Under the pieces are notes generated by a model. That model searched no databases and had not been told where the DNA came from. It saw nothing but the letters and a program-made list of their open reading frames with translations. The translations under genes were made by a program, and so were the position numbers. Below are positions 12,393 to 32,000 of a DNA stretch of 32,000 nucleotides, piece after piece (the stretch's first letter is position 1; each line of letters starts with the position of its first letter). Origin of the DNA: Candidatus Omnitrophota bacterium (GTDB taxonomy: Bacteria > Omnitrophota > Gorgyraeia > Zapsychrales > JANLHA01). The DNA lies in contig OY759724.1 of NCBI GenBank assembly GCA_963662715.1, forward strand, positions 870,001 to 902,000, in the 5' to 3' direction.

Positions 12393-12476
12393 AGGTCGGG
12401 GCGAAAGTTGTAACATTATTTATTGCAAGAGGTTAACTACTTCGAGGAGACCCGATGTGCCATATTTGTGCCAATA

Positions 12477-12662: not shown

Positions 12663-12765
12663 ATATGCCTCCTATCCTTACGCTTATAGATTATCGGTGA
12701 CTAACAAGAACATCGCGCATTTTTGCCATTTCTTGGACTGTTTCCGCTCTTTTCCCTTGCATCAT

Positions 12766-13386: not shown

Positions 13387-13971
13387 AGTCACACCTGGGA
13401 GCACTCTGCCATTGACCAATCTTACGTCTTGTCTCCCTCTTAGCATATTCATTAATGGCACGCTGCATCCGCGCACCTGACTGTTTTAATATCTTTTTCT
13501 TAACCTTATCCGACACATTTTCCCGGTCTTCTGCCAACTCGTTCAGATTATTCAATAAATCCACCAGCAAGAATTCCTTGGAAAGCTTCCTGGGGAATTT
13601 AGTTTTCAGGCGAAAATCAAAAACCTTCCCGCCAAACTGAAATTTCCCGCGCCGTTTATGATTATGACAATCTGTTTGTTGTATAATTGGGTTGTCCCCA
13701 CCCCCAAGGAATTATAGAGATTCGGCGATATCAAAAGGAAGTCATCGCTCTTTAGGAAAGCACGCACAAGCTTCTCATCTTCCGGAGGTACATTTCCAAA
13801 AGATGCTTTGATGGGGCAATAATACAAGCCCCTCGACATTTTCTGTAAAACACCTTCTTTAACAAGCTGCCTGAGATGCCGATCAATCGAAGCAGCCCAA
13901 CGAACAAGATCGGCCCGGCGGTAAACCTGACCCAACTTTAAATGTTTCTTTAAATTTTCCACGGACTTCAT
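13376..13971 (-). pseudogene. AbiEi-like / DUF6088-like wHTH protein split by a frameshift
   Basis: ORF 13606-13971 (MKSVENLKKHLKLGQVYRRADLVRWAASIDRHLRQLVKEGVLQKMSRGLYY...LYNKQIVII) ends shortly after a frame change. The +2 frame continues without stops from about 13660 as ...NRKRRGKFQFGGKVFDFRLKTKFPRKLSKEFLLVDLLNNLNELAED..., which is the 64-aa ORF 13376-13570. Joined, the product is about 195 aa. Confidence 0.55.
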
Positions 13972-13977
13972 CTTTTA

Positions 13978-14775: not shown

Positions 14776-14813
14776 TAAATTACAAACCTTCCCCTTTTTA
14801 TTTCCTATGGCAA

Positions 14814-15695: not shown

Positions 15696-16306
15696 CAGCC
15701 CTTCTCCTGTCTATGCTTGATTTGTTTTAGAACCATCGTAATTCTCTTCCGTGCTCTTTCAGACATATCAGCGCTGGCAATATCTATGATCTGAATAAGC
15801 CCGCGGTCACACGCTTGGCTGACAGCCTGCGTAAGATAATCCGCGCTGAGATTTGATTCAGCAGAATCGATAACGGTTTGAAGAGGCGTTGTCACAAAAA
15901 AGCCCTCTCTTTGCTCTTTAGCAATATCCGGGATGATTCCTTTATGAATAGCGCATCCTTTGGGCGCCTTTTTCCTGAATCCAGGAGGAACTGTAAAATG
16001 AATTTTACCCGGCATAACATCACTAAGTTCATGAATGCTTAGGGCTGAATCATGCGACATCACCGCTTGTGGCTGACCGCTGCGGTCCCTGCTCCAAAGT
16101 GACCACCGCACATAGTCCTCATCCGGAGAGTTTGGAAATTGGGCAAGCCGGAATACACCTCTGTCTATCTCAAGCCATTCCCCGTTTTGCCGGTAATGAC
16201 TTTGCATACGGTAAGAATAGCCCGCATTGATGGCCTGCTTTGCGGTAAAATACCCTTGCTGGGCTGAAGCCACTTCAAACAGTTTTTCTCGTTTGTTATT
16301 TTCCAT
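15695..16306 (-). CDS. AbiEi-family antitoxin / transcriptional autoregulator (type IV TA)
   Basis: MENNKREKLFEVASAQQGYFTAKQAINAGYSYRMQSHYRQNGEWLEIDRGVFRL is an AbiEi_4-type N-terminal wHTH. The ATG at 16306 is preferred to the TTG at 16315. It lies immediately upstream of abiEii. Confidence 0.8.
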   Translation of the reverse strand: MENNKREKLFEVASAQQGYFTAKQAINAGYSYRMQSHYRQNGEWLEIDRGVFRLAQFPNSPDEDYVRWSLWSRDRSGQPQAVMSHDSALSIHELSDVMPGKIHFTVPPGFRKKAPKGCAIHKGIIPDIAKEQREGFFVTTPLQTVIDSAESNLSADYLTQAVSQACDRGLIQIIDIASADMSERARKRITMVLKQIKHRQEKG

Positions 16307-16309
16307 AAT

Positions 16310-16387
16310 GCACAATCCTTACACTATATGTAATAAATATACAATAATATATTAATTTGTCAAGCACAATCATTACATAAAATGTAA
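16310..16387 (-). promoter_or_regulatory. abiE promoter flanked by two 24-bp operator-like repeats
   Basis: GCACAATCCTTACACTATATGTAA (16310-16333) and GCACAATCATTACATAAAATGTAA (16364-16387) match at 20 of 24 positions, and each contains TTACA-N5-TGTAA. Between them the minus strand reads TTGACA (16363-16358), a 16-nt spacer, then TATATT (16341-16336). Confidence 0.5.
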
Positions 16388-16493
16388 CATTTATGCGTCT
16401 GAGTCTCTCCCCCCGATATATGTGAACCCGTCAGGGGGCCCCAAAGGGGGGATTTCGGTTTTGGAGACCCTAAAATTACCGCCCTTCAGGTAT

Positions 16494-17615
16494 CTACCCT
16501 GAAGAATTTTTTACATAACTTATTGATGGGGATAGGTTTTCTGTGTGGACGGGTGGCCGATGTGCCACATGCGTGCCAACTTTTGACGGATTACCCAGGT
16601 TCAGGGCCTGGACTGCCCGCTGCTTGTGGCTGCAGCTGAGGTGAGAATACCGAAGCGTCATTTCCATGGTCTTATGGCCGAGCAGTTCTTTGACGGTCAT
16701 GAGATCCACCCCGGCCATGACAAGCTGCGAGGCAAACGTGTGCCTGAGATCGTGAAATCTGAAGTTCTCGATCCCCGCCTTCTTCAAGGCCGTGTAGAAT
16801 GACTTTTTGATATCATTAAACGGCTTGCCATTGTAGCTGGCGAAAACGTAGGGGCTTTCCGGATCCTTCCTGACGCGATACAGGATATCGCGCACTGCAT
16901 CATTGACCGGAATCTCGCGTTGCTCTCCGTTCTTCGTCTGCAGAATATGGATCAGCCCGCGGTTCAGATCAACGTTGTTCCATTTGAGATTAAAAATCTC
17001 GCCCTTACGCATGCCGGTATTGATCGCGAACTCCACGATATCTTTCAGGGGATCCTCGCAATGCTCCAGCAACCGCTGAATTTCTTCCTTCTCAAGAAAC
17101 CTTGTACGCTTATTATCAACAGGGAGAAACTTGAAACCTTGGACCGGATTGCGACTACTAAGATACTCCCATTCTTGAGCCTTGTTGAACATATTTCTCA
17201 GCACACCAAGATCCTTGTTCACCGTGTTGCCAACGATAGGTTTCCTGGTCCGAGGATTCTTATGCAGGAGCCGCCAATCGACAAACTTTTCAACATCTCG
17301 CTGAATGATCTCATGAAGATATTTATTACCGAAATATTTTATAAGGTGCCGAACATTGCTCCTCGATGATTTATGCCAGCCACGCAAAGTCCTCTGGCAA
17401 TGCCTCTCAAGATATTCTTGCGCGAAATCCTTAAACTTCATCTTCTTCTCGCGCTTGATATCGAGATGTTTGTTTTCGGCAACGAGGGTAAGCCGCTTTT
17501 GTAGAATCTTCTGGGCAATCGCCTTGTTGGGCGCGATCAATTCACGCTTCCTCACACCCTCTGCCGTGAAATAATCAATACCCCAAGTTTTTCCTCTTTT
17601 AAATACTCTGCCCAT
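16494..17615 (-). CDS. int: Tyrosine recombinase / phage-type integrase
   Basis: 373 aa. N-terminal SAM-like and core-binding region, then a catalytic domain with TGMRKGE (Arg), HDLRHTFAS (HxxR) and LGHKTMEMTLRYSHL (His, Tyr). Confidence 0.92.
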   Translation of the reverse strand: MGRVFKRGKTWGIDYFTAEGVRKRELIAPNKAIAQKILQKRLTLVAENKHLDIKREKKMKFKDFAQEYLERHCQRTLRGWHKSSRSNVRHLIKYFGNKYLHEIIQRDVEKFVDWRLLHKNPRTRKPIVGNTVNKDLGVLRNMFNKAQEWEYLSSRNPVQGFKFLPVDNKRTRFLEKEEIQRLLEHCEDPLKDIVEFAINTGMRKGEIFNLKWNNVDLNRGLIHILQTKNGEQREIPVNDAVRDILYRVRKDPESPYVFASYNGKPFNDIKKSFYTALKKAGIENFRFHDLRHTFASQLVMAGVDLMTVKELLGHKTMEMTLRYSHLSCSHKQRAVQALNLGNPSKVGTHVAHRPPVHTENLSPSISYVKNSSG

Positions 17616-17626
17616 AGTTTAAATAT

Positions 17627-17680
17627 ACACCGCTTTTATTGCGGTGTCAATAGTTTAGCACCGTAGTATAATACGGTATT
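17627..17680 (+). promoter_or_regulatory. Divergent int/XRE control region with two palindromes and a -10 box placed for a leaderless XRE mRNA
   Basis: ACACCGC-ttttatt-GCGGTGT (17627-17647). ACCGTA-gtataa-TACGGT contains TATAAT (17667-17672), which ends only 8 nt before the ATG at 17681. No SD is present. Confidence 0.35.
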
Positions 17681-17893
17681 ATGAATGCGTCACTAAACAT
17701 AAAAGCCAGTAAAAAGATCAGAGCAATGCGCATCAAGCACAAACTCACCCAGGAACAGCTTTCTGAAGCCACTGGCATTGATTATAAATACATTCAGAAG
17801 ATCGAAGGCAAGAATCCTCCCAATATAACCCTTAAAACTTTAGAAAAACTTGCCAAGGTTCTCAAAAGCACCCCTGCAAACTTGCTCAAATAG
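17681..17893 (+). CDS. XRE-family HTH transcriptional regulator (cI/Cro-like)
   Basis: 70 aa. IRAMRIKHKLTQEQLSEATGIDYKYIQKIEGKNPPNITLKTLEKLAKVL is a canonical HTH_3 domain. Confidence 0.85.
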   Translation: MNASLNIKASKKIRAMRIKHKLTQEQLSEATGIDYKYIQKIEGKNPPNITLKTLEKLAKVLKSTPANLLK

Positions 17894-18080
17894 GTCTCTC
17901 TGGCACTTTCTTCCCTTCAAGCCATTTCTCTATTTCCGAAGGTTTGAATTTCGTTAAACGGCCCACCTTCAAGAAGGGCACCTGTCTTGTGTGTACCCAA
18001 TTATAAAGCGTGCTGACCTTGATCCCTAAGTAATCAGCAAGTTCCTGCATATTGATCAAATTTTCTTGTCTATTGTTCAT
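17886..18080 (-). CDS. xis: Excisionase-family DNA-binding protein (MerR/AlpA-like HTH)
   Basis: 64 aa. MQELADYLGIKVSTLYNWVHTRQVPFLKVGRLTKFKPSEIEKWL matches the excisionase HTH_17 pattern. Its 3' end overlaps the XRE gene 3' end by 8 nt (convergent). Confidence 0.8.
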   Translation of the reverse strand: MNNRQENLINMQELADYLGIKVSTLYNWVHTRQVPFLKVGRLTKFKPSEIEKWLEGKKVPERPI

Positions 18081-18352
18081 TTAACATATTAATATAGAAA
18101 AAGTTAAGAGAATCATTGATTGCGTCATCAGGAGGGATACGCAACTTTATATATTCTAATGCGTTACAACAATATGTTCCCATAATCATGGTTTAGTTAT
18201 CACATCACAACTTGTTGCTAATAAATAGCTTGCATTACAATTACAAAAATCCCGCCCCTTTTTGATCTATCTTTGCACACTTCACTCGTGATGGACTATC
18301 CCTCCCCATGCCTTTTATCCCAAAAGCTATCCCCACTTAAAAGATAGGAATG

Positions 18353-18700
18353 CTACGCATTCAATTTATTGATGAAATATTCAATGCTTACCAAAACCTT
18401 GCCTTGAAAACTTTTTACCTTAACAAGAGCTGGGATATCTGCCTGAATATGATATTTATCACCCGCTGTTAGCTCCTGACCCATGTCATATTTTTGCATA
18501 ATAGCTCTACACATAAAACATTGCACCTTCATCTGCTTCCCTATGTCTACCAGAACCCCTATTTTCTCTACCAGCCATTCCTCTTCTTTTTTTCTTTCAA
18601 TCGCTTCATTGCGCTGCCTAATATACTCAGACAGCATCCTTCCCTGAGGCAGGCGCTCTATAATCCTATCCAATTTCTTTAGCTGTTCATCTTTGCCCAT
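18353..18700 (-). CDS. Hypothetical protein (115 aa)
   Basis: Clean ORF in the island, same strand as its neighbours. No recognisable motif. Confidence 0.45.
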   Translation of the reverse strand: MGKDEQLKKLDRIIERLPQGRMLSEYIRQRNEAIERKKEEEWLVEKIGVLVDIGKQMKVQCFMCRAIMQKYDMGQELTAGDKYHIQADIPALVKVKSFQGKVLVSIEYFINKLNA

Positions 18701-18807
18701 TCTTTAACGGTCCTTACACAAGACTTCTACAAGGAGAATCAAAAGCCATATCCACTCGCACACATTTTTTCTTATACCTACGAGAAGTTTTGTGTAACGA
18801 ATAATTC

Positions 18808-20406
18808 TTAAACGCAGGTTAAATCCCCAATGTGATCAAGACCATTCATGGGCCGAACGATCCAAGTCTGAAATCTTTCTTTTGGATAATAAAAATATTC
18901 GTCACCCATTTTGGCTTCTTGAAGCAGTCCAATGCATTTCAGCTCAAGCAATATTCTTTTTGCTTGGTTATATCCTTTACCTATAAGCTTAGCGCATTCT
19001 TTACGGGACAATTGGCCTCTATTAGCAATCACATCCTCCGTTTGGAATAGATAAAGCACCTCTGCCCGATTTACTGGCATAGAAGACATTACAACCCTTC
19101 TCGCTAATTCGATTTCATGATCTGTTACGTGATCCCGTTTATGAATGATGGCCAGTGATCTTGTTAAAACTTTGATTTGCTGCAAAGCACGCCATGGCTC
19201 CTCAATTTGAATTTCCGCAGGTTCATAATAAGTGAAAGCATTCCCCTTCTTGCTTGTCCCACTGACCAATTCGGTTCGAATGACAGCCCTACCATGCCTA
19301 AGCAAATCAGCCAAAGAATTTATATCTTCTATCTGTTCTGGCGTCTCAGGTTTAAGTTCCATGATATCTTCTTGCACCTGCCATATATAGGCAGAAACTT
19401 TTCCCCTCAATTGTTTAAGTTTTCTATTCCGTTCGTCTCCAGACCAAGCGATCTTATAGCCTTCTGAAATTTGATCATTGGTAAGAGGCAATATTCTATA
19501 GAATAAAAACCTCGGACCTATCATGTTCATATAAACTTGATGTCCGGCCAACGCCACTGGAGTAATGCACCCTAAATGGCTAAAAGCGGCTTCATATTGT
19601 ATGCGTCCGCGCGTACCTGTAAACTTGGCAAAGACTTTGTCATATATGGCACACATATCACCCAAAATCTTCCTAATCGTATCTGCCTTTAAGGAAAATA
19701 ACGCCGTAAAATCCTTAACCACAAAACACTTCATATCAAGCTCTGCCAAAAGGTCTTGTGTTGCGAACCCATCTTCAGATACAAAACCGCTAATAAATGA
19801 ATTTTCTGTAAGTGTGTCCAAATGATAAACAAATGGAACGTCACGTATAGTGGTTACAGTGGCAGTTTTGTCGCTTGAAGGTGGCCCTACCAACATAAGC
19901 CAAAGCGGGGCCAAATTATATTTCATAGACACTTTCAAACTGATTGCTACAGCTATAGTCAATTCGATTATGTCATGACTGGCTGATGAAACATCGGCAA
20001 GTATTGCGTGTATTTCCAACAAACTTGTCTGCGTTTCCACTAGTCGTCTAATCTTTTCTTGCGCTTCTGCTTCTCTTTCTTTCTCATGTTTCTCTTTCAG
20101 GAAGGCTGCTCGTTTTTCTCCATAAATTTGCTCGAAGTGCTGCTTGGTAAACTTAAAAGAATTTTTGAAAATAACCTTGAAACTTTCCACTTCTGAGACT
20201 GCATACTCAATACATGCTATTCGCTGTATCAGGCCCGTTAACTTAATAATTCGATCTTGTGCATCTCTAAATGGCGACTTTTTTTGTGATATTCTCACCA
20301 GCTTCTGCAGATCCGCAGAAATGCTTTCTTTTTCTTCCTGCTCTGCAGTTGGACTCTTTTTAATCAATTCATCGAGCTCTTTTTTTGCATAATCTTCATT
20401 TGCCAT
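18808..20406 (-). CDS. Putative primase-associated P-loop NTPase/helicase with C-terminal wHTH
   Basis: 532 aa. Walker-A-like LVGPPSSDKT (Asp where GK[ST] normally has Gly), Walker-B-like CFVVKDFT, and a C-terminal RKECAKLIGKGYNQAKRILLELKCIGLL wHTH. Overlaps the upstream Toprim gene by 11 nt. Confidence 0.5.
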   Translation of the reverse strand: MANEDYAKKELDELIKKSPTAEQEEKESISADLQKLVRISQKKSPFRDAQDRIIKLTGLIQRIACIEYAVSEVESFKVIFKNSFKFTKQHFEQIYGEKRAAFLKEKHEKEREAEAQEKIRRLVETQTSLLEIHAILADVSSASHDIIELTIAVAISLKVSMKYNLAPLWLMLVGPPSSDKTATVTTIRDVPFVYHLDTLTENSFISGFVSEDGFATQDLLAELDMKCFVVKDFTALFSLKADTIRKILGDMCAIYDKVFAKFTGTRGRIQYEAAFSHLGCITPVALAGHQVYMNMIGPRFLFYRILPLTNDQISEGYKIAWSGDERNRKLKQLRGKVSAYIWQVQEDIMELKPETPEQIEDINSLADLLRHGRAVIRTELVSGTSKKGNAFTYYEPAEIQIEEPWRALQQIKVLTRSLAIIHKRDHVTDHEIELARRVVMSSMPVNRAEVLYLFQTEDVIANRGQLSRKECAKLIGKGYNQAKRILLELKCIGLLQEAKMGDEYFYYPKERFQTWIVRPMNGLDHIGDLTCV

Positions 20407-21034
20407 TAAAATAATCTCTCACATCTTTGCCGTGTGATAATACCTTTGCCAAATCAACATTTTTGACACTCAAAGCAATGTCGCATAACATCTGAGCGAC
20501 CTTTTTAGAGCATTCTCTTCCCGTCTGATCCGCATCATAAAGCAATACAACATGCTTTCCTTTAAACAAATGAACCCATTCCTTTAAAAAAGTAAGTGCT
20601 CCAGGCACACCCACCACAAATTCATAACCGTGCGCCTCCATGGACATCGTATCCCATTCCCCTTCGCAAATATAGACGACTGCCCCATAAGGAGCTGTTT
20701 TAAGGCACTCGACATTAAATAATCCCGCTCGACTGCCTTTCTTTGATATCGTGTCTCCCTCGGGAATCTTCCTTCGAAATCCTATTAAAAATCCATTTTC
20801 ATGAAAGATGGGAAGGGTATACGCATACCCATCCCAGCCAATTCTGTGTTTTCTTAAAGTATCAATGGGAATACCCCGATCGTCCGAAAAATTTTTTAGC
20901 TGAACGCGAGATAAGCAGGACTCATAACAATCAATTAACCCTCTATTAAACAGATCTTTCTTGATCATTGGCACAGGGGCATGGGGCTTATTCGCTTGAT
21001 ATCTTCTGATTTCTAAATAACTTTTATCGCTCAT
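20396..21034 (-). CDS. Toprim-domain protein (DnaG-type primase-like)
   Basis: 212 aa. VYICEGEWDTMSM (Toprim Glu) and VVLLYDADQTGRE (DxD) motifs. 4-nt overlap with the upstream gene. Confidence 0.7.
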   Translation of the reverse strand: MSDKSYLEIRRYQANKPHAPVPMIKKDLFNRGLIDCYESCLSRVQLKNFSDDRGIPIDTLRKHRIGWDGYAYTLPIFHENGFLIGFRRKIPEGDTISKKGSRAGLFNVECLKTAPYGAVVYICEGEWDTMSMEAHGYEFVVGVPGALTFLKEWVHLFKGKHVVLLYDADQTGRECSKKVAQMLCDIALSVKNVDLAKVLSHGKDVRDYFNGK

Positions 21035-23427: not shown

Positions 23428-24048
23428 CTAAGCAGCGGTCAAAATCTTCTGGATCTCTTTTCTCCGTCGTTTAAATTCCTCTCTGGCCCATCTTTCTACA
23501 GCGATGTGTTCACTTATCATGTCTCCCATAAGCCAGCTTCTAAAGTTTTCACAACGACCATAATAGCAATCATCCGATTCCTTTGTCTTTCTTTTTAAAG
23601 CCCCCCAGGAATCATAATGCATTTTTTCTTTTATGTATCGCTGTTTATCTTTCGGTGTCATTAATTTGGTTTTCCATGCGACCTTTTCCATTCTTAGCTG
23701 ATCTTTTGCATCCTTTTCTAATTGCTTCTTGAGCCGAACCCATTCCAATGGCACTTTTTTCTTAATCCTGAAATGAGCTACCTCATGAAGGAGAGTAAGA
23801 AAATATTGTTCACCGGGCCTCAATTTTACCTTAATATCAGCAACATAGAACGCATCCCCACCAACAATACAGCCTAAATCTTTTAATCCCATATTGGGAT
23901 GTAAAAATATTCTATTCTTATCGAAACATGCCAAACCACACCAATTATTTTTTAATTTCTTCCATTCAACTGCAGGACAATCTTTTTTAAAATATGGCTT
24001 GGCAAATTCCTCTAAAACTTCAATGGTTGGCCTTAATGTCGATGCCAT
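23428..24048 (-). CDS. SprT-like zinc metallopeptidase (HExxH)
   Basis: 206 aa. VEWKKLKNNWCGLACFDKNRIFLHPNM followed by TLLHEVAHF (HExxH) follows the SprT-like domain layout. The start is 3 nt after the stop of the upstream nuclease gene. Confidence 0.6.
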   Translation of the reverse strand: MASTLRPTIEVLEEFAKPYFKKDCPAVEWKKLKNNWCGLACFDKNRIFLHPNMGLKDLGCIVGGDAFYVADIKVKLRPGEQYFLTLLHEVAHFRIKKKVPLEWVRLKKQLEKDAKDQLRMEKVAWKTKLMTPKDKQRYIKEKMHYDSWGALKRKTKESDDCYYGRCENFRSWLMGDMISEHIAVERWAREEFKRRRKEIQKILTAA

Positions 24049-24051
24049 ATT

Positions 24052-25254
24052 CTATCTTTTTAAAAAATCATATTGTTTACCATAAGCGGAATAAAAACCA
24101 TCAGGTACCGGCCAACAAAGGCAAATACCCAACGATCGAAGATATTCAACTATCCACAATAGTTCTTCGGGGGGCGGCGTTTGTACTACCAAACACAGTT
24201 TGGCGCCCTGCGCTGGTTTAGAATAAAGGAATCGATACTCAAAAAGCTGGGCAATCCCACCGCGTACTTGCGACAAGAAATTAGAACCATTCGTGCTTTT
24301 AACTTCAAAGATCCAACTCACACCATCAACCACAGCAAACAGGTCCACCTTCTGATTCTCTGAAACGCTATGCTTGTGAGCGCCTATAACACGACTTAAT
24401 CTATTCAACAGATCTTGGTGAGCATTTAACGACTTTTCTAAAGCCGCTATTCTATTGCCTTCATCATATATCTTTCCGGAAGCTTGCATCTGTGTTAAAG
24501 CTTTTTGACGAAAAGGGGTCTTCTTTTTAACTCTTGAGAATGCTTTTTGATTATATTCTTCTTGTCTTTTTTGCAACCGACTCTCAATTTTATTGAATTT
24601 CTCGGGGTCTTCTATTTGAAATCCAGTTTGCGGCCATTTTTTAAAACCCAGAATTCCTTTCACTTCAGATAACCGGATACCATGATCAGGAGGAACCGCA
24701 TAATCAGGAATAACCGATCTTTTAAAAATCCATCGTTTATTTCCCCTCAATTGTTGTCCTTTCGGGATCCAAATCGTTTCATTTAATACCGTACCACTGG
24801 CAAAAACAGCCTTTGCTCCTTTAAAATTCTCTGAGGGGTGCTTCCCAACTTGATAAAAGAGAACACGATCACCATCTCTGATGATCTCATTTCTACGTTG
24901 TTTCTTCTCGTGAAACCAAATATACAGGGCTGACAAATCTCGATTGGGAGAAGGCCAATATTGCTCAAGCCAATATTGGCAAGCAACCTTTTTCTCTATT
25001 CCTAAGCGAGGTATCTTGTACCGGATAACTAAGTTCGCTCCGTCTCCTTTTGGGGGTTGCTCCCGTATCTCATCTCCATCATTCATTGAACTACGCATCA
25101 CCGAACAACAAACAGGCATTCTATGATTTCCTGGATAGCCCCCGACTTTTCTGTGAAGATCCCCAGCTCTAATATCAATATATGGGAATCCTTTTTCAGT
25201 GGCGTCTCTTAATTCTTCAACCAAACTTTTATAAAAAACTTCCCTTTTTCTCAA
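24052..25254 (-). CDS. Three-domain protein: unknown N-domain, PUA-like (EVE/ASCH-type) middle domain, C-terminal PD-(D/E)xK nuclease
   Basis: 400 aa, TTG start. The middle IIRDGDRVLFYQVGKHP...GAKAVFASGTV resembles EVE/ASCH beta-barrels. The C-terminus VDLFAVVDGVSWIFEVKSTNG...GGIAQLFEY carries a D...E-x-K...Q nuclease core. Confidence 0.55.
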   Translation of the reverse strand: MRKREVFYKSLVEELRDATEKGFPYIDIRAGDLHRKVGGYPGNHRMPVCCSVMRSSMNDGDEIREQPPKGDGANLVIRYKIPRLGIEKKVACQYWLEQYWPSPNRDLSALYIWFHEKKQRRNEIIRDGDRVLFYQVGKHPSENFKGAKAVFASGTVLNETIWIPKGQQLRGNKRWIFKRSVIPDYAVPPDHGIRLSEVKGILGFKKWPQTGFQIEDPEKFNKIESRLQKRQEEYNQKAFSRVKKKTPFRQKALTQMQASGKIYDEGNRIAALEKSLNAHQDLLNRLSRVIGAHKHSVSENQKVDLFAVVDGVSWIFEVKSTNGSNFLSQVRGGIAQLFEYRFLYSKPAQGAKLCLVVQTPPPEELLWIVEYLRSLGICLCWPVPDGFYSAYGKQYDFLKR

Positions 25255-25507: not shown

Positions 25508-25642
25508 TTACTTATTCTTACCCTTGGTCGTACTTATCCCTGATGTTGGCTTAGGTGTATTTATAGGTCTTATTGTAGCCCCAGCTGTCGTTCCTTGCCC
25601 TTTGGTTGGCTTTGGTGTGGGGCGCGGTTTCTGATCGCTCAC
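25508..25642 (-). CDS. Unannotated micro-ORF 1 (44 aa), Pro/Thr/Lys-rich
   Basis: The GTG at 25642 overlaps the TAG of the upstream gene by 1 nt and is preceded by AAGGAGG. Translation is VSDQKPRPTPKPTKGQGTTAGATIRPINTPKPTSGISTTKGKNK*. Confidence 0.45.
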   Translation of the reverse strand: MSDQKPRPTPKPTKGQGTTAGATIRPINTPKPTSGISTTKGKNK

Positions 25643-26205
25643 TAAATACCTCCTTTCTGTAAAGCATAAAAACTCAAAAAAACGATTAACGCCAGAAGAA
25701 ATCCCAAAGAAAATAAAAACATCCTGGCAGATTTTTTGAGTTCGGCTCCCTTATGCTCATTAATTTGAAAGTTATTACGGTAAACTTCCCAAAAATGTGA
25801 GGTTAAATATCTTTTAAAAGAAGATTCCTCTTCTTGGATCATTTGTTCATGGAAGACATCTTCTTCAGAGATCGATTTAAAATCGCTTCTTGTTTTCATA
25901 GATTGGAATGCATAAAATAATGCCACAAATGAAAAAAGCAAGGACCCCAGATAAAGGGGGACAAGAGTATTTATCCAAATCGGGGATTTAATATCTGTTA
26001 CAATTAACCCTCCCAGGCCAAAAACTAAAGTCATATATACTCCAATTAATCCCAGAAAATTATTGGCTTTTTCATCTAGATTCACCTGTCGATCTGATTC
26101 TTGTTGAACCAGATTATAGGACAAAGAATAGACAGTCTCAATAATCCGAGGATCTTTGATTCTTAGCCGCTCGATAATTTGTTCGATAGAAAGTTTAGGA
26201 GTCAT
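25642..26205 (-). CDS. Three-TM membrane protein (Pycsar-effector/SLATT-like layout, tentative)
   Basis: 187 aa. A soluble helical N-terminus ends in DEKANNFLGLIG, followed by TM1 and TM2, a charged linker, then C-terminal TM3 (MFLFSLGFLLALIVFLSFYAL). ATGA overlap with the upstream gene. Confidence 0.55.
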   Translation of the reverse strand: MTPKLSIEQIIERLRIKDPRIIETVYSLSYNLVQQESDRQVNLDEKANNFLGLIGVYMTLVFGLGGLIVTDIKSPIWINTLVPLYLGSLLFSFVALFYAFQSMKTRSDFKSISEEDVFHEQMIQEEESSFKRYLTSHFWEVYRNNFQINEHKGAELKKSARMFLFSLGFLLALIVFLSFYALQKGGI

Positions 26206-26627
26206 TTCTTTATTTCAATCTTAAAATTTGGGATTTGATCTTCTTTACAGAAAAATTTAATACCCACACCATCCATCGCATTATATCTCTCATATTGCAC
26301 AGTTTTTCGGGGCGTAATCTTAACATCTGTCGCATCACCGTATCTCTCTTCCAGAATAAATATAATAGTCCCATCCTTATCAATCGTTTTCTTTACTTTG
26401 TAAGGGAAATTCTTACTCTTCAAAACACGTCCGTCAGTGGAAACTAAAGCATAGGAATAATCTACGTAAGAAGAGACCACCTGTATAAGCCCATAAATCA
26501 ACAAAACAGATGCGGCAACAATACCAACAATCTTGACCCATAACTGTTGCTGCACCGACTCTGGCAGAAAACCATAAACCGTATTATAAACCGAAATCAG
26601 CACTAACAACGCTATCCACATCCACAT
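26202..26627 (-). CDS. 2-TM protein with beta-rich C-terminal domain
   Basis: 141 aa. Two N-terminal TM helices (WIALLVLISVYNTVYGF, IVGIVAASVLLIYGLIQVV) are followed by a strand-like soluble domain of about 80 aa. It starts 21 nt after the HerA stop. Confidence 0.55.
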   Translation of the reverse strand: MWMWIALLVLISVYNTVYGFLPESVQQQLWVKIVGIVAASVLLIYGLIQVVSSYVDYSYALVSTDGRVLKSKNFPYKVKKTIDKDGTIIFILEERYGDATDVKITPRKTVQYERYNAMDGVGIKFFCKEDQIPNFKIEIKK

Positions 26628-26648: not shown

Positions 26649-28511
26649 CTATTGGGAATTTTTATTCGCAATGTTTTTAAATTCTAAAGTATGACTCCTC
26701 GGTTTTTTAGCTGTCGGAAGCTCCGTAATTTTCAATTTTAAAGGCATTGGAGTAGCTATCCCGCTAAAAATACATACACCAACCGGCAAAGCTGGTATCG
26801 ATTCCTCAGTTATCCTATCAATATAAGAAACAGCGTTTCCAATAGTAGCAAGATCTTTTTGATTAATAAGTTGATGAATAAAATAATTATGGGCTTGAGA
26901 GATTATTGTATCTGATATGTCATTCGGTCTTTGACTTGCGATGGTAATAAAAACGCCAAACTTGCGACCTTCCTTGATAATCTCTTCAAAAGTTTCAAGA
27001 CGGTAATCTTTCCATTCCTCTGTTTCTCTAAAAGAAGTTTTCGATAAAATGTTATGAGCTTCGTCAATAATGATATTGAGAGATTTTTTATTATCTTCTT
27101 TTTTATGGTTGCTGTAGATATTTTTCGCCAGCAACAAGGGAACGGTTTTTTTCATGTCCAAATTAACATCATGTAAATTTACCACGACACAGTTATATTT
27201 ATCCCAAAATTTAGGAGAAGACTCGACTTTAAAGGTTCTCTCAATGCTTGTTTGCTTGGCTTTAAATCGATTAATAACTGGGTACACATGGTCATTCTGG
27301 ACTTTGTATCTAAACACATCCTCTATAAGCTGCAAATGAAGAAAAATATAGAACAAAGATAATTCAGATATCTTGCCTATCTTTGAATTATCAATAGAAT
27401 TTGTCAGCTTATAGATATTCGTTTCTTCTATAGCCTGGGGACTACCATTAAAATATGTTTCCTCTCCGAGTTTCTTAAACGTCTCGTATTTGCTATTAAA
27501 TTCAATATCACTTTTTATATTAATATCTGTCGTGTCATCAATAAACTTCTCCAGGACTTCTTCCATATAATCCAGCAATTTTAAAGCAACATCCTTATTC
27601 GCCATCTTAAGGATATCCTTGATTTTGTTCTGAACAATTCCTTTTACATAGGCAGCAAAATTATCCTTGGATTTTGACTTTTTATAGAACCTAAGCGTTC
27701 GCTTCAAAAATGGCTTTTGTGTCTTCTCAGTTGCCTCCATCAAGATCGCTAAGGTTTCGATATCGAACAACTCATCAAAAAGCATTGGAATTTTATCGCC
27801 CTTATCATCCTGAGTCCGAAGATTATAAGGTTTCTTATTCTTTGTTACACAATCTGGCTTAATATATTCTCCATTAAAATCAAGAATGAGAAATTTACAG
27901 TTTGTTTGAAACCCCTCATCTTTACCACATAGGTCGAAAAATCCTTGGTACAAAGCCGCAAGAGTATTCGATTTACCACTCCCGGTATTTCCAAAAATTG
28001 CTATATGACTATTAAAAATACTGTCTACGGGCAATTCGACAGGGATCTCTTCAATTTCAGTCTTTGCTATTTGGACATGAAGAGGAGAGTCGTCTTTCGT
28101 TAAATTATGAATATTGTGTATCTTTTGCTCTGTTAAAATGAATGCTTCATTACCAATCAGCGGCAGCTCCTTTATTCCCCCAATAAATTTGCCATTTAAA
28201 TCCACATATCCCACCAAGCTCAACGTCAAAAATCGTTCATTCCTATTAACTCTTTTATATTCATCATTCATCTCTTCTTTTATATCTATTTGTTCCTTCA
28301 ATTTTTCCCCATCGGATTTCCCTATAATACTAAGAAAACCCTTTTTGATTTCTACATAGCTCCCGACAGAAACATTCTTAATTATGTCGCCATCAAAAAG
28401 AAGGTCAGAAGAGTTTTTATTTTTATCTACTTTAATAAAAACTTTCCTTCCTTCAATCTCTGAAACTTCTCCTATCCGGAGAATTGCATCTTTTAAAAGG
28501 CTATTGTTCAT
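26649..28511 (-). CDS. HerA-like (FtsK/HerA, DUF87) ATPase of a SIR2-HerA defence pair
   Basis: 620 aa. N-terminal HAS-barrel-like IGEVSEIEGRKVFIKV, Walker A IAIFGNTGSGKSNT and Walker B LNIIIDEAHN. Overlaps the SIR2 gene by 11 nt. Confidence 0.85.
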   Translation of the reverse strand: MNNSLLKDAILRIGEVSEIEGRKVFIKVDKNKNSSDLLFDGDIIKNVSVGSYVEIKKGFLSIIGKSDGEKLKEQIDIKEEMNDEYKRVNRNERFLTLSLVGYVDLNGKFIGGIKELPLIGNEAFILTEQKIHNIHNLTKDDSPLHVQIAKTEIEEIPVELPVDSIFNSHIAIFGNTGSGKSNTLAALYQGFFDLCGKDEGFQTNCKFLILDFNGEYIKPDCVTKNKKPYNLRTQDDKGDKIPMLFDELFDIETLAILMEATEKTQKPFLKRTLRFYKKSKSKDNFAAYVKGIVQNKIKDILKMANKDVALKLLDYMEEVLEKFIDDTTDINIKSDIEFNSKYETFKKLGEETYFNGSPQAIEETNIYKLTNSIDNSKIGKISELSLFYIFLHLQLIEDVFRYKVQNDHVYPVINRFKAKQTSIERTFKVESSPKFWDKYNCVVVNLHDVNLDMKKTVPLLLAKNIYSNHKKEDNKKSLNIIIDEAHNILSKTSFRETEEWKDYRLETFEEIIKEGRKFGVFITIASQRPNDISDTIISQAHNYFIHQLINQKDLATIGNAVSYIDRITEESIPALPVGVCIFSGIATPMPLKLKITELPTAKKPRSHTLEFKNIANKNSQ

Positions 28512-29589
28512 CTTTTATTAGCTTCGTCTTCTCCTGCTTTTGCTTGTATTCTGGTGGGAGCATTTTTTTTATAATTAAATTGAACTTGTCGAAATTGATT
28601 TCTTCGGCTTCTGAATACACAATGTCTACATTATTAGCTGCAGAAAATTTTTCTTTATATCCTGCCAACTCATCCCTTTTATAACAAAAAACAACAACCA
28701 TTAAAGTCGGATTTCTCAATGCCCTGGCTGTAATCTCATATATATGTTCGTCCGCGAAAGAAAAACCTTCTGCTATTAAGAGGGTATTCTCCTTTTCTAA
28801 TTCATTTGCATATATCCTCAATAAGTCGTAGTAAGTCTGATTCAAAATACATTCTTTAAATTTCTCTTCTCTTGGCAAAACTATTGAGAAATTATTGTTA
28901 AATTGCTTTATTTTTTCTCCCGTCTCAGTATTTGATATTTTTTTAAGCTCTTCTACTAAAACGTCCAACTGTCGAATAGAAAAGAATATTTTGTTATCCT
29001 TAGATTCCCAGCCTAACGATCCATGAATTTTTATAAGATTTATTGATGGAACTTGAACTTGATAGTTATATAAATTCCCATTGTTATATGTCGAGTTAAA
29101 GAACTCGGAGGGAGAAAACAAGAACGAGCCTGAAATCAAAGGCCTTCTATTAAAACCATCATTGAGCCTGGCTGAGATTTCTATTTCTTCAAATGCCTTC
29201 TCAACAAAAAGATCATAATTAGTTGAGAAAATAGTGGCTTGCCTCGGCAAAATATTAGTTTTTCTTTTAAATAATATTTCTGAGATGTTTGTTAAAAAAG
29301 ACTTATAAGTCATCGTAGTCTGATTAATATTCTCATCTGAATTCTGCCTCATCCTTGACGTGACTTCTACGATGGGCTTAAGAAATTCAAACGTCATCCT
29401 TTCTGCTTCTTCATTCTTTCCCTCTTCCCTTCTACTCCTTATTTCATTCTCAACATTCCCCAAGGGTGCGAGTGCAGGATGAGAACAGCCTGAGCCTATT
29501 AAAAAATTCAAATTGACCGACTGGATTGCCTTATATAATCTGAAGAGAAATTCATCTTTTTTCTTATCGATATCCCATATATTTGCCAT
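28501..29589 (-). CDS. SIR2-family (SIR2_2-type) NADase-like protein
   Basis: 362 aa. NFLIGSGCS (GAGxS-type loop), IFSTNYD (catalytic Asn) and IKIHGS (catalytic His). GGAGG SD before the ATG. Confidence 0.8.
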   Translation of the reverse strand: MANIWDIDKKKDEFLFRLYKAIQSVNLNFLIGSGCSHPALAPLGNVENEIRSRREEGKNEEAERMTFEFLKPIVEVTSRMRQNSDENINQTTMTYKSFLTNISEILFKRKTNILPRQATIFSTNYDLFVEKAFEEIEISARLNDGFNRRPLISGSFLFSPSEFFNSTYNNGNLYNYQVQVPSINLIKIHGSLGWESKDNKIFFSIRQLDVLVEELKKISNTETGEKIKQFNNNFSIVLPREEKFKECILNQTYYDLLRIYANELEKENTLLIAEGFSFADEHIYEITARALRNPTLMVVVFCYKRDELAGYKEKFSAANNVDIVYSEAEEINFDKFNLIIKKMLPPEYKQKQEKTKLIKDEQ

Positions 29590-29599
29590 ATTACCTCCA

Positions 29600-29681
29600 T
29601 TCTAAAAATCTAAGGTCTTCGGTACACACCATACACTGCATTATATTCCCACCTTCTCATACAAATGCTTCTAAAAATCTA
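29600..29681. repeat. 13-bp direct repeat in the SIR2 operon upstream region
   Basis: TTCTAAAAATCTA occurs at 29600-29612 and 29669-29681, upstream (minus-strand sense) of the SIR2 start. Confidence 0.6.
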
Positions 29682-29735
29682 TGAAGGTGTTGCGGATATT
29701 GTCAACGCCGCCCGTGATTTCCTCTGCATCACCGG

Positions 29736-30818
29736 TCACAGATCATCACTTTTGGGACAGGTTATACAATCCATCCCCCTGGAATAATAATGACATTCAT
29801 TACAGCGCGTACATTCTCTTATATTCATCTTCTCACCACAAAAATATTTGTCTGCAAACTTGCAATCTGCAATTAATGCTCGCCCTAATGAAAAAGTAAT
29901 GTTTTTATACTGCGCTGTTTTTAATCTTTCTAAATCCAACACTTTACCTGCAACATTCCAAAATATATGCTTAAATTTCTTGGCTAAAGGAATTACTTCA
30001 TCTAACAAATAAGCATGTTTAAAATTCTCAGCCGGATAAATAAAATGCTTGTTAATATTATAGAATCCGCTTGAAATACTTAACATATCAATATCCCATT
30101 CACAAATTCTTCCCAATAAATCAGTCTTATATCCCTCAGCAGCTAAATCCTCAATCCCGTCAAAACGATTCACCCGCAAATCTAAGACGATATCGGGTAC
30201 TTGATCACGAATTCTATCAACAATATCATGCATAAATTTTAATCGATCATAACAATTATCATCATTTCTTGTGTTAAGAACCCTATTAATCATTTGTGCC
30301 AGAAAATAACCATGTGCAGCATGGATTTGGATCACCTTGAAACCAGCTTCTCTTGCAAGAACCGCCCCAGCGACAAACAGGTCTTTAATCTCCTCGAACT
30401 CTTTCTCTGAGCAAGAAGAAATTCTTCTTTGGGCCAATTTAATGAACATCTCTGGATTCTTATTCACCCATTGTTTTTGTTGCTTAATTCTTGGGTCATG
30501 CAAAGACAGCTGTATTCCTGGCAACGATCCGTTCTTCTCTATCGCTTCTGCCAATTTCTTATACTGCACATCTGACGAAATTATTGCTGTATTATCATTT
30601 GACCGAAATCTTGAATGAACAGCGACATTCCCAACATAACTAATTCCTAAACGTGATCCAGACCTTCGCTCATGGAAGTCAATTAACCTTTGTGTTGGTA
30701 TGCCACCTCTAGCAAAACCTGTATTTATGGGTGCGAGGAATAAATGAGAAGGCACCCTTAATCTTCTTATTTCTAAGGGAGCAAACAAATATTTAATTTC
30801 TGAACTAGCACAAAACAT
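29736..30818 (-). CDS. Old-Yellow-Enzyme-like FMN oxidoreductase with C-terminal Cys cluster
   Basis: 360 aa. LFAPLEIRRLRVPSHLFLAPINTGF, LPGIQLSLHD, VIQIHAAHGYFLAQMIN and GRALIADCKFADKY match the OYE/FadH N-domain layout. The C-terminus is CTRCNECHYYSRGMDCITCP. Confidence 0.7.
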   Translation of the reverse strand: MFCASSEIKYLFAPLEIRRLRVPSHLFLAPINTGFARGGIPTQRLIDFHERRSGSRLGISYVGNVAVHSRFRSNDNTAIISSDVQYKKLAEAIEKNGSLPGIQLSLHDPRIKQQKQWVNKNPEMFIKLAQRRISSCSEKEFEEIKDLFVAGAVLAREAGFKVIQIHAAHGYFLAQMINRVLNTRNDDNCYDRLKFMHDIVDRIRDQVPDIVLDLRVNRFDGIEDLAAEGYKTDLLGRICEWDIDMLSISSGFYNINKHFIYPAENFKHAYLLDEVIPLAKKFKHIFWNVAGKVLDLERLKTAQYKNITFSLGRALIADCKFADKYFCGEKMNIRECTRCNECHYYSRGMDCITCPKSDDL

Positions 30819-30843
30819 AAGAAATCAATTTAATAGATACATA

Positions 30844-31293
30844 TTAGCATCCGAACTCACTCTTTAAATGCTTTAAGAACTTCTGCGTCGCAGGAAAAAC
30901 CTTCAACCCCTGTGTATCATCAAGCCTCAACCATCGCCATTCAACAAGCTCAGAAGAATTAAACTCTAATGTAGTGTCCTCAGCAAGATACACCACATAG
31001 AAATAAACCTTACCCTCTCCAAAGTCATAATCCGTAGTAATCGCCAAGCTCATCTTTTGATTAGACAGGTCTAATCCGACTTCCTCTTTTACTTCTCGCA
31101 TAACCGTAGACATTGGGCTCTTATCAATACCCTTTACTCCCCCCCCAGGGGGTTGCCAATGATTTGGAAATCGTCGGGTTTTGACTAGTAGTATTTCTTT
31201 TCTACTATTTAAAATTCCTATTACAGCCACATCACGTCTGGGATTGCGCTCTAACTCCCTCGTCACATCTGAATCATTCTTATCAAAAACCAT
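30844..31293 (-). CDS. NUDIX hydrolase
   Basis: 149 aa. Nudix box GGGVKGIDKSPMSTVMREVKEEVGL (REUxEExGU intact). The start codon directly abuts the stop of the upstream gene. Confidence 0.85.
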   Translation of the reverse strand: MVFDKNDSDVTRELERNPRRDVAVIGILNSRKEILLVKTRRFPNHWQPPGGGVKGIDKSPMSTVMREVKEEVGLDLSNQKMSLAITTDYDFGEGKVYFYVVYLAEDTTLEFNSSELVEWRWLRLDDTQGLKVFPATQKFLKHLKSEFGC

Positions 31294-32000
31294 TTATTCC
31301 CCACCTGTTTTAAATAAAACAAAAGTAATTATTAGCCCTGCAATGGACGCTAAAGATCCTGAGATATCTAGTGTTTTCTCAACAATTAAAAACTTATCTC
31401 CCTCCAGGACAAAGGGAGCTACACCATTTACAATCAACAAGAAAACAAAAAGCATCCCCAAAATCTTTAAATACTTTTCTATCCTAATAACTTTCGAAAT
31501 AATGTTTCGTAAGGGACGAGGCAAGGATTTCCAACATTTTGCTTCCAAGGAATGATAATCTACCGGATCAGCATGAAATTGACTAGGATAAGGCCACGAC
31601 ATGGTTGCATCACCATGCTGCCCAACATAAGGTGAAGAAGCCTTAGCTTTTAGTCGAAAAAAACAGCCTTTGACAAAAGAGATTCCTTTTTCAAAATGAA
31701 TTGGACGAGCGCTTAAATTTGTCATTGTAATGCCTAAACGTCCTCTAAAGCCCGGATCGGCCGCTGTGCATACAGGTGTTAGCCCCATGGAAAACAATGA
31801 CCCCTTGGAAAATAATAGCAAGAAGTGTTCCTGATCAAGATTGACTTTTTCCATTGTTACTATAGTAAGCGTTTCAAAAGGATTGATCGTATGCGAAGCT
31901 TGCTTTCTTTGACTAGTCTGCTTCTTTTCATAATCATAAGTATACGATATATCCCCAACTCGGAATTCATAACAACAGCCATCAAGTTGTTTGTTGTCAA
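31294..32000 (-). CDS. dCTP deaminase/dUTPase-fold protein with C-terminal 2-TM extension (5' end outside the window)
   Basis: The frame stays open upstream of the listed ATG to the window edge (DNKQLDGCCYEFRVGDISYTYDYEKK...INPFETLTIVTMEKVNLDQEHFLLLFSKGSLFSMGL...ADPGFRGRLGITMTNLSARPIHFEKGISF). This follows the Dcd/Dut beta-barrel pattern (SSxxRxGL, DPGxxG, xxN). The C-terminus adds two hydrophobic helices (ILGMLFVFLLIVNGVAPFVL, SLASIAGLIITFVLF). Confidence 0.65.
   Translation of the reverse strand, partial: DNKQLDGCCYEFRVGDISYTYDYEKKQTSQRKQASHTINPFETLTIVTMEKVNLDQEHFLLLFSKGSLFSMGLTPVCTAADPGFRGRLGITMTNLSARPIHFEKGISFVKGCFFRLKAKASSPYVGQHGDATMSWPYPSQFHADPVDYHSLEAKCWKSLPRPLRNIISKVIRIEKYLKILGMLFVFLLIVNGVAPFVLEGDKFLIVEKTLDISGSLASIAGLIITFVLFKTGGE

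Follow-up and report, generated by a model that had tools for sequence, protein, structure and literature searches.

Manipulation of the nucleotide pool and nucleotide-based signals are central to bacterial and animal innate immunity, as seen for SAMHD1, viperin, the cGAS-like systems and Kongming. Among the systems of bacterial defence islands, the zinc-dependent dCTP deaminase (AvcD), dGTPase and the prokaryotic viperins either target the pool of (deoxy)nucleoside triphosphates ((d)NTPs) or produce modified nucleotides. Phage T4 makes hydroxymethyl-dCTP by the successive action of the gp56 dCTPase/dUTPase, the gp42 dCMP hydroxymethylase and the gp1 deoxynucleoside monophosphate (dNMP) kinase. 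Nucleotide-gated membrane effectors usually consist of a nucleotide-binding domain joined to a two-transmembrane (2-TM) segment. The Kongming system comprises the deaminase KomA and the non-canonical NTP pyrophosphatase KomB, which is complexed with the SIR2 effector KomC; its signal is dITP and its trigger is provided by phage nucleotide kinases. Here, we analyse a 32,000-nucleotide (nt) stretch of a Candidatus Omnitrophota genome (assembly GCA_963662715.1, contig OY759724.1, positions 870,001 to 902,000; hereafter, the window), which ends with three genes encoding a protein of the dCTP deaminase/dUTPase (Dcd/Dut) fold with a C-terminal 2-TM hairpin, a NUDIX hydrolase and a flavoprotein of the Old Yellow Enzyme (OYE) type with a predicted [4Fe-4S] site. 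Our best explanation, which we put forward tentatively from sequence comparisons, is that these genes represent an as yet undescribed conflict module that spreads horizontally, is most likely directed against phages, would act on pyrimidine deoxynucleotides and would use the Dcd-fold protein as a sensor/effector.

The gene content and the fusions of this module are compatible with Kongming-like signalling by a base-modified nucleotide. According to the logic that we infer for the module, a base-modified deoxynucleotide would be obtained in both systems from a small set of enzymes together with kinases, and a house-cleaning, dNTP-binding fold would be coupled to an effector. However, no protein family is shared: where Kongming has the KomB fold, a deaminase and SIR2, the module has the Dcd fold, a flavin/Fe-S reductase and an output through 2-TM, PNP or PRTase segments, respectively. 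Moreover, the nucleotide of the module would be a pyrimidine, in contrast to the purine of Kongming. AvcD, dGTPase and the viperins have folds unrelated to those of the module, and the PADLOC models of known systems match neither the Dcd-like nor the OYE proteins. As for T4, the gene content suggests the same order of reactions (dNTP pyrophosphatase, base modification of the dNMP, dNMP kinase), but the module is encoded by cells or prophages and not within the replication module of a lytic phage, its modifier would be a reductase, and it contains an additional, membrane-anchored Dcd-fold protein. Finally, the PNP domain of a fused relative (protein P0196) matches the CBASS effector model PDLC00759; unlike CBASS and Pycsar, the module contains neither a CD-NTase or cyclase nor any of the sensors SAVED, STING and SLOG, its putative ligand domain being the Dcd fold.

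The search of PADLOC-DB v2, in which three subtypes of the module were checked, returned no model matching either of the two core proteins, in agreement with the initial annotation of the window (made from its sequence), which had regarded these enzymes as distinct from the known dCTP-deaminase and dGTPase defences. PGAP annotates both core proteins as 'hypothetical protein', and their NCBIfam matches are generic and sub-threshold. Our full-text literature searches yielded no description of a Dcd-fold/OYE module, the defence-related papers that they retrieved contained no flavin ene-reductase, and Dcd/dUTPase, MazG or OYE effectors are not mentioned in the main text of Kaur et al. 2020 or of Kaur et al. 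2021 (both eLife). Nucleotide-based immunity as a general theme is known, in contrast to the protein families, to the flavin/Fe-S chemistry and to the architecture that joins a Dcd fold to the membrane.

The three genes of the window are arranged as follows:

31294 to >32000, minus strand: gene 1, Dcd/dUTPase-fold protein with a C-terminal 2-TM hairpin, frame open to the window edge; core component
30844 to 31293, minus strand: gene 2, NUDIX hydrolase of 149 amino acids (Pfam NUDIX, E = 2.1e-18); accessory pyrophosphatase slot
29736 to 30818, minus strand: gene 3, OYE-type flavin mononucleotide (FMN)/[4Fe-4S] oxidoreductase of 360 amino acids (Pfam Oxidored_FMN, E = 4.7e-20); core component

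The family assignments of the window genes are far beyond chance. The layout proposed by the initial annotation, i.e., a three-gene array immediately upstream of a SIR2-HerA pair on the same strand, agrees with the coordinates and the PADLOC matches down to its junctions: the gene 1 stop codon (TAA, 31294-31296) directly abuts the NUDIX ATG (31293), and 25 nt separate the NUDIX stop (30844) from the OYE ATG (30818). Gene 1 indeed extends beyond the window, as had been assumed. Its frame (31294-31998) runs to the window edge, the open reading frame (ORF) listing containing only an internal ATG at 31854, and the full-length product, P0001 (267 amino acids), was found in public data and is 100% identical over the window part; residues 34-267 are encoded inside the window, the rest being cut off by its edge.

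The Dcd-fold gene and the short OYE gene occur together in 40/40 assessable non-redundant loci from at least six phyla. When the search was started from the Dcd side, the OYE gene was located downstream in 16/16 genome loci with enough sequence, and the close homologues of the window module showed the order DCD-NUDIX-OYE; an independent start from the OYE side revealed a Dcd-2TM gene next door in Firmicute and metagenome loci, and the copies on plasmids and in prophages carry the pair as well. In a metagenome scan, all 14 true family members had the partner wherever the contig permits. The generic OYE/FadH loci that the same pattern had retrieved served as a control, and none of them (0/66) had a Dcd-like neighbour; in view of 40/40 against 0/66, we reject a chance neighbourhood. 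Moreover, the pairwise identities of the Dcd and OYE proteins correlate with r = 0.92 (0/2000 Mantel permutations as high), a value that is inflated and partly reflects shared host phylogeny. The array is almost certainly a conserved functional unit, and its invariant core is the Dcd-fold protein, which belongs to a trimeric fold, together with the OYE/Fe-S protein; the pyrophosphatase is accessory and a thymidylate-kinase-like (Tmk) gene is occasional. Thus, of the trio that had initially been considered as a unit, the Dcd/OYE pair stood, whereas NUDIX proved to be interchangeable and outside the core. The window module itself is chimeric: its Dcd and NUDIX proteins are nearest to the clade of locus L017 (42-52% identity to L017-L020), while its OYE protein is nearest to those of L021, L027 and L023 (41-44%) and just 24% identical to that of L017. 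Elsewhere, the clade of the window OYE protein pairs with MazG-type or pyrophosphatase-less modules.

The P0001 protein carries the motifs SKGSLFSMGL, ADPGFRGRLG and ITMTNLS, and it matches Pfam DCD (PF22769; E = 2.6e-9, 37.8 bits, cut-off 27), so the Dcd/Dut motifs initially recognized in gene 1 (SKGSLFSMGL, ADPGFRGRLG, TNLS) are indeed present. With 43.6 bits against TIGR02274 (dCTP_deam), it remains below the cut-off of 92.8 and does not reach the equivalog score. A profile built from 29 relatives (alignment A1) gave as the best PDB matches the archaeal Dcd-type dUTPases 8y1w (E = 3.4e-20) and 9ln0 (2.2e-19), to which the protein is 28-30% identical, followed by Dcd-Dut and Dcd. Likewise, the AlphaFold2 model (overall predicted local distance difference test score, pLDDT, of 88) had Dcd-Dut, Dcd and the dUTPase P45 as its top Foldseek matches, with a probability of 1.0 and target-normalised TM-scores of 0.7-0.88. 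On the strength of these profiles and the predicted structure, the jelly-roll beta-barrel fold of Dcd/Dut can be taken as established, and the protein is by both measures nearer to the archaeal Dcd-type dUTPases (8y1w, 9ln0) than to the deaminases. Two parts of the protein can be distinguished:

31570 to 32000, minus strand: beta-barrel nucleotide-binding head, residues about 34-176 in the window (family alignments; hidden Markov model alignment to PDB dUTPases)
31303 to 31518, minus strand: C-terminal helical hairpin, residues 194-265, with two hydrophobic, predicted transmembrane segments

A second alignment, comprising 40 sequences of all subtypes, showed that the pocket residues K98, D114-P-G-F117 (ADPGF, 113-117), N127, K143, Y157, G159-Q-H-G162 and W168-P169 are kept. 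With the Dcd family (E. coli Dcd, the Dcd-Dut enzymes of M. tuberculosis, M. jannaschii and B. halodurans, and the dUTPases 8y1w of Thermococcus pacificus and P45, 9ln0), the protein shares the beta-barrel, ADPGF, N127 and the Y..GQ.G pocket. It differs from that family in the invariant K143 and W168-P169, which are specific to the Dcd-fold proteins of the module in all subtypes aligned, in a C-terminal 2-TM extension of about 90 residues, and in its obligate pairing with the OYE/Fe-S protein. A further difference concerns three residues that are catalytic in E. coli Dcd: E138, S111 and R115 (E. coli numbering) are replaced by T124, G99 and S103, respectively, the position equivalent to E138 being T or V across the whole family. 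Hence, the canonical deaminase mechanism is excluded, and the protein is not an ordinary Dcd; the lack of the catalytic Glu, which the initial annotation had noticed in gene 1, thus extends to the entire family and is accompanied by that of S111 and R115. The phosphate-binding motif RSS..R, kept in the archaeal dUTPases, reads KGS..S, while D114, Y157 and Q160 are retained.

The two hydrophobic C-terminal helices, also part of the first reading of the gene, were found both by AlphaFold2, which predicts long helices at residues 194-230 and 234-265, and by Kyte-Doolittle analysis, with peaks of 1.68 at 206-224 and 1.92 at 243-261 (windows of at least 1.6). This 2-TM pattern is nearly universal in the family: the hydrophobicity of the tail is conserved, its sequence is not.

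The gene 3 product carries HAAHGYFLAQ and CTRCNECHYYSRGMDCITC and matches Oxidored_FMN (PF00724) with E = 4.7e-20 and 72.6 bits (cut-off 27), consistent with its initial assignment as an OYE-type flavoprotein with a Cys tail. Its NCBIfam matches, BaiCD and bilirubin reductase, cover only the N-terminal domain of these enzymes and lie far under the cut-offs (BaiCD, 109 vs 825 bits). Profile matches in PDB include YqjM (1e-43), FadH (1ps9) and 2-naphthoyl-CoA reductase (NCR, 6qkg), and the AlphaFold2 model (pLDDT 94) retrieved YqjM, TsER, NCR, FadH and TMADH in Foldseek, the Fe-S flavoenzymes NCR, FadH and TMADH being matched over their N-terminal domain only. Two sites define the protein:

30306 to 30323, minus strand: OYE catalytic motif H166-A-A-H169-G-Y171, carbonyl-binding His pair and proton-donor Tyr, aligned with the HAAHGY of YqjM
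29757 to 29813, minus strand: Cys cluster C336-x2-C339-x2-C342-x11-C354 (plus C351), predicted [4Fe-4S] site

In alignments A2 and A4, Q103, H166, H169, Y171, R215 and R313 are invariant, Q103, R215 and R313 being the FMN-binding residues. The Cys cluster has two invariant positions (C336 and C342), one that is conserved to at least 90% (C354) and a variable one (C339); the adjoining H343-Y344 is nearly invariant. Hence, the protein shares the OYE TIM barrel, HxxHGY and the FMN-binding Gln/Arg residues with YqjM and TsER as well as with the N-terminal domains of FadH, BaiCD, bilirubin reductase, TMADH and NCR, and it has in common with the FadH/BaiCD/TMADH type the CxxCxxC-x11-C motif at the barrel end. 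Unlike the latter enzymes, of about 640-730 amino acids in total, it ends at residue 360, directly after the Cys motif, and lacks their C-terminal FAD/NAD(P)H domains; further differences from both the FadH-type and the YqjM/TsER enzymes are the variable second Cys, the family-specific motifs INTG(F), GNV and CHYYSRG, and a Dcd-fold gene that is always adjacent. Judging by the conserved residues and the confident model, the protein is predicted to be competent as a reductase.

An exhaustive profile search yielded about 61 clusters (50% identity) of Dcd-fold relatives at E <= 1e-30, among which the Dcd-2TM unit is also found fused to further domains: PRTase-CE + Dcd + 2TM, PNP_UDP_1 + Dcd + 2TM (at least 10 clusters), NUDIX + Dcd + 2TM, and bacterial Death-like domain 3 (bDLD3) + Dcd + 2TM. 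The PNP domain of P0196, fused to Dcd-2TM, matches the CBASS 'Effector PN-superfamily' model of PADLOC at 1.6e-37. These fused genes are again adjoined, before or after, by an OYE gene, as in the following three loci:

L111: integrase, 313-amino-acid gene, PNP-Dcd-2TM, OYE
L112: PNP-Dcd-2TM, MazG-like, OYE
L113: Tmk, MazG, OYE, bDLD3-Dcd-2TM

Beside the PNP-Dcd-2TM and OYE genes, L111 (5642-7600) and L112 (3300-5297) encode, in differing orientations, a protein of about 650-665 amino acids with an N-terminal XRE-type helix-turn-helix, which is a candidate regulator or sensor. Since the deaminase residues are lost, the domain is fused to 2-TM or effector segments and a Death-like adaptor is linked to it, we consider the Dcd head as a putative dNTP-binding controller; that the Dcd-2TM protein would be a sensor/effector and not a pathway enzyme is, on these sequence features, a plausible but tentative assignment.

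The NUDIX protein scores 67.1 bits against PF00293 (cut-off 21.1) and its Nudix-box core REvkEEvG is intact; RE..EE.G is invariant in the five NUDIX-type loci, while the position of the upstream Nudix-box Glu is K/D-shifted. It reaches no NCBIfam equivalog (MutT, 40.8 vs 97.9 bits; NAD diphosphatase, a weak match) and matches the PADLOC single-gene candidate PDC-S07 (E = 8.9e-12). Across the family, its slot is occupied as follows:

NUDIX: 5 loci, in the window's clade only
MazG-like protein of 117 amino acids: about 29 loci, ExxE and ExxD motifs conserved, PGAP name MazG
MazG-like domain fused to the Dcd barrel, replacing the TM hairpin: L012 and L013
Canonical trimeric Dut: L031 (Pfam dUTPase, 3e-17)
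Frameshifted MazG-like remnant: L023
Empty slot: 5 loci

Given that MazG-like proteins or Dut substitute for it, or the slot is empty, NUDIX is not essential to the module. That a single slot accommodates three mutually unrelated pyrophosphatase folds, including a family specific for dUTP, points to a step from pyrimidine dNTP to dNMP. Additionally, Tmk genes adjoin the module in L007, L033, L039 and L113, at varying positions, and that of L113 matches PADLOC PDC-M51B. Because the Dcd fold, the slot with its three folds, the Dcd-MazG and NUDIX-Dcd fusions and the adjacent Tmk genes all point in this direction, the substrates of the module are, as far as gene content can tell, probably pyrimidine deoxynucleotides.

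The same enzymes could simply drain the pool. According to such a scenario, the Dcd-fold protein and NUDIX, MazG or Dut would hydrolyse dCTP, dUTP or dTTP to dNMP and the flavoenzyme would irreversibly reduce the base, which would then be unusable by phage kinases or thymidylate synthase, so that phage DNA synthesis would be starved; the membrane anchor would just localise or restrain the enzyme. In favour of a sink, the solved structures nearest to the Dcd-fold protein are those of active dUTPases, the NUDIX, MazG-like and OYE catalytic motifs are intact, Dut itself occupies the slot of L031, and defence through depletion of dNTPs, by dCTP deaminase or dGTPase, is reportedly an established principle (Tal et al. 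2022). However, the Tmk-like kinases recurring in four loci would work against a sink, two pyrophosphatases per module would be redundant, the Death-like, CBASS-type PNP and PRTase fusions suggest a regulated sensor/effector unit, and an unregulated sink would be toxic, with no conserved regulator being present. We regard this scenario, including its account of the reduced base and of the anchor, as unlikely. Therefore, the membrane-tethered nucleotide system envisaged in the initial annotation is upheld with regard to an undescribed unit with a 2-TM tail, whereas plain depletion fits the Tmk genes and the fusions less well than a modification and sensor/effector logic does.

Following the sensor/effector explanation, we propose that the module would work in four steps. 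Firstly, the pyrophosphatase would turn a pyrimidine dNTP (dUTP, dCTP or dTTP) into the dNMP. Secondly, the flavoenzyme would alter the base at the monophosphate level, most plausibly by reduction of C5=C6 to give a 5,6-dihydropyrimidine nucleotide, the simplest product to envisage because the OYE active site suits an alpha,beta-unsaturated carbonyl, such as C5=C6-C4=O of pyrimidines. Thirdly, a kinase (the cis-encoded Tmk, a host or a phage enzyme) would restore the triphosphate. Finally, the Dcd-fold head would bind the modified (or another) pyrimidine dNTP and control the attached output, i.e., the 2-TM hairpin in the window module, possibly leading to membrane damage and abortive infection, or the PNP and PRTase enzyme domains in the fused relatives. 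A 5,6-dihydropyrimidine nucleotide is a possible, but not a likely, product of the module. The complete scheme, with a reduced (5,6-dihydro) pyrimidine deoxynucleotide as an immune alarm that is phosphorylated by a cis, host or phage kinase and read by a deaminase-dead Dcd-fold trimer gating the hairpin or the PNP/PRTase effectors, is more doubtful and is offered as a speculation.

A pyrophosphatase, a base-directed flavoenzyme and Tmk would also be expected of a pathway making a viperin-like poison, namely a reduced or otherwise altered pyrimidine dNTP misused by phage polymerases, with the Dcd-fold protein as a pathway enzyme (e.g., feeding dUMP) or as self-protection; the inferred suitability of the OYE active site for the pyrimidine C5=C6-C4=O speaks for this option as well. 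Nevertheless, polymerases accept 5,6-dihydropyrimidine dNTPs, which block them only weakly, the 2-TM hairpin and the effector fusions would be left without a role, and Tmk is missing from most loci, which makes a poison quite improbable.

Several observations weigh against the sensor/effector explanation and the defence role attached to it, besides the inflated correlation of the two protein trees. There is no obvious infection sensor in the module. A Tmk encoded in cis would render a kinase-gated trigger constitutive in the loci that have it. Variants lacking the transmembrane segments exist, i.e., the Dcd-MazG fusions of L012 and L013 (P0038/P0177); hence, the membrane hairpin is not the only possible output, and an indispensable membrane tether is ruled out. 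Dut-type hydrolysis remains compatible with the Dcd-fold protein, which could be an enzyme rather than a sensor, since its nearest solved relatives are active dUTPases. Furthermore, the defence-island context of the module was sampled locus by locus.

The module is present in Bacillota, Pseudomonadota, Acidobacteriota and Chloroflexota and is sporadic over at least six phyla. In Sinorhizobium, Rhizobium and Priestia, it resides on plasmids that are conjugative or mobilizable, and in prophages L107 and L108 it directly follows the gene of a CI-like repressor and precedes xis/int, the same post-cI position as that of rexAB in phage lambda. In L108, a gene at 10345-10887, about 2 kb downstream of the module and before the integrase, encodes an HD-type deoxyribonucleoside 5'-monophosphate phosphatase (PHROG 318, E = 9e-68). 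Elsewhere, the neighbours include ParE/Phd, HicAB and YoeB/RelB toxin-antitoxin genes, RVT_1, EVE, NERD, DNA methylases, HD-CE/ORC-CDC6-like proteins, a NACHT protein of 2001 amino acids, transposases and an ATPase-like ORF that we read by eye as OLD-like; a PADLOC scan of 124 flanking ORFs (L002-L016) gave, in aggregated output, matches to CapP, ShosA, DinG, CARF and methyltransferases. Decayed copies occur as well: the Dcd gene is split in L016 (7992-8768), the OYE gene in L009 (9090-10084) and L040 (5446-6461), and the MazG-like gene is frameshifted on a Priestia megaterium plasmid (L023, 7650-8000). In isolated phage genomes (INPHARED), we detected generic OYE and Dcd matches only, with 21-30% identity; therefore, a DNA-hypermodification pathway of lytic phages was set aside as an explanation.

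An accessory metabolic or house-cleaning cassette, which might, e.g., sanitise or salvage pyrimidine nucleotides that have been damaged or oxidised, at the membrane in the case of sanitation, and which is carried as mobile-element cargo, would account for the presence of NUDIX, MazG and Dut, which are classical house-cleaning enzymes, and of an OYE, since these are often stress or xenobiotic reductases; some loci, such as L019 on its upstream side, do adjoin ordinary metabolic genes. Such a function sits poorly, however, with the sporadic occurrence in at least six phyla and the frequent pseudogenes, with the prophage copies immediately downstream of a cI-like repressor gene, with the Death-like, PRTase-CE and CBASS-type PNP fusions, which are hallmarks of conflict systems, and with neighbourhoods in which toxin-antitoxin, restriction-modification, reverse-transcriptase, NACHT and SIR2-HerA genes abound. 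We consider it very unlikely, and a role of the module in conflict or defence likely; the modules do lie in defence islands or on mobile elements.

If the proposed scheme is true, nucleobase redox chemistry would serve as an immune signal and the dCTP-deaminase fold would have been re-purposed as a receptor. The module would add to the described defence systems a flavin/Fe-S reductase, a membrane-anchored Dcd fold without deaminase residues and a pyrophosphatase slot in which three folds are interchangeable; it may also bring to light a modified deoxynucleotide not known so far, and it would give a function to two families whose present names are 'hypothetical protein', 'dCTP deaminase' or '2,4-dienoyl-CoA reductase-like'. 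Being small (2-4 genes), the module could be cloned and tested directly.

Downstream of the trio in the window lie the two genes of the SIR2-HerA system, preceded by a promoter-like site:

29676 to 29705, minus strand: promoter-like site TTGACA-18-TAGATT (consensus match; the overall count of promoters and terminators is not above the shuffled expectation)
28501 to 29589, minus strand: SIR2 (PADLOC, E = 9e-104), downstream of the trio
26649 to 28511, minus strand: HerA (PADLOC, E = 1e-201), downstream of SIR2

The trio might be thought of as an accessory of SIR2-HerA that makes or removes a nucleotide, or processes NAD or ADP-ribose, to regulate it: the genes are on the same strand, the OYE stop is separated from the SIR2 start by a gap of only 146 nt, and NUDIX enzymes can act on ADP-ribose or NAD (cf. 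the weak NAD diphosphatase match). Yet SIR2 was not found in any of the other approximately 40 loci screened, the adjacency to SIR2-HerA being seen in the window only, and a lone HerA-like ORF is present in L002 only, about 3.5 kb from the module and on the opposite strand. SIR2-HerA is, moreover, a complete two-gene system in PADLOC, NUDIX is replaceable by a MazG-like protein or Dut, and the promoter-like site in the gap suggests that SIR2-HerA would be a separate transcription unit. Since the adjacency is not conserved, we reject the trio as part of SIR2-HerA, and an accessory function is most improbable. The alternative raised in the initial annotation, in which the trio would produce or remove a signal meant for the adjacent defence genes, is not supported, on the same grounds.

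The surroundings of these arrays change along the window. Housekeeping genes (CarB, Dak1/Dak2, glutathione peroxidase) fill it up to about 12 kb and are followed by an island of lower G+C content with a metallophosphoesterase, AbiEii/AbiEi, a tyrosine integrase, a Toprim protein, several orphan genes, HerA, SIR2 and the trio, the G+C content falling from about 0.42-0.56 (1-17 kb) to 0.33-0.41 (18-32 kb). Given this order in a lower-G+C stretch with the integrase, AbiE and SIR2-HerA, the trio is placed in an integrase-associated defence island. We did not find a tRNA gene at the island border, nor elsewhere in the window. The border region (13978-21034) contains the calcineurin-like metallophosphoesterase, the AbiEii/AbiEi toxin-antitoxin pair (14814-16315), the tyrosine integrase (16494-17615), an orphan gene of 532 amino acids and the Toprim-domain protein.

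Other loci show neighbourhoods of their own. In L110 (9151-13917), L004 (4850-10252) and L036 (7021-11820), which are alphaproteobacterial or metagenome loci, the module is followed directly by the same convergent cluster of four genes, encoding a Dam-family methyltransferase, a metallophosphoesterase, a protein of about 600 amino acids and a hypothetical protein of about 300 amino acids; this cluster might represent a further defence system that travels along with the module. The pyrophosphatase-less variant of L021 has a GGDEF/Cas10-palm-like protein immediately upstream (6190-7134) and, downstream (10110-16115), a 162-amino-acid orphan gene and the 2001-amino-acid NACHT (STAND) protein. A signalling link between these neighbours and the module is possible, because another subfamily bears a Death-like adaptor domain.

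Within the window, two orphan genes on the minus strand (23428-25254) are located between a response regulator and the HerA block; their products, one of 206 amino acids with a HEVAHF (HExxH-like) motif and the other of 400 amino acids, have no family match in Pfam, PADLOC or NCBIfam. Directly downstream of HerA, on the same strand (25642-26627), are two overlapping genes for small membrane proteins of 141 and 187 amino acids, likewise with no match in Pfam, PADLOC or NCBIfam. The gene of the 141-amino-acid protein begins 22 nt past the HerA stop, and the two membrane proteins may be an accessory/effector pair of the SIR2-HerA locus of the window.

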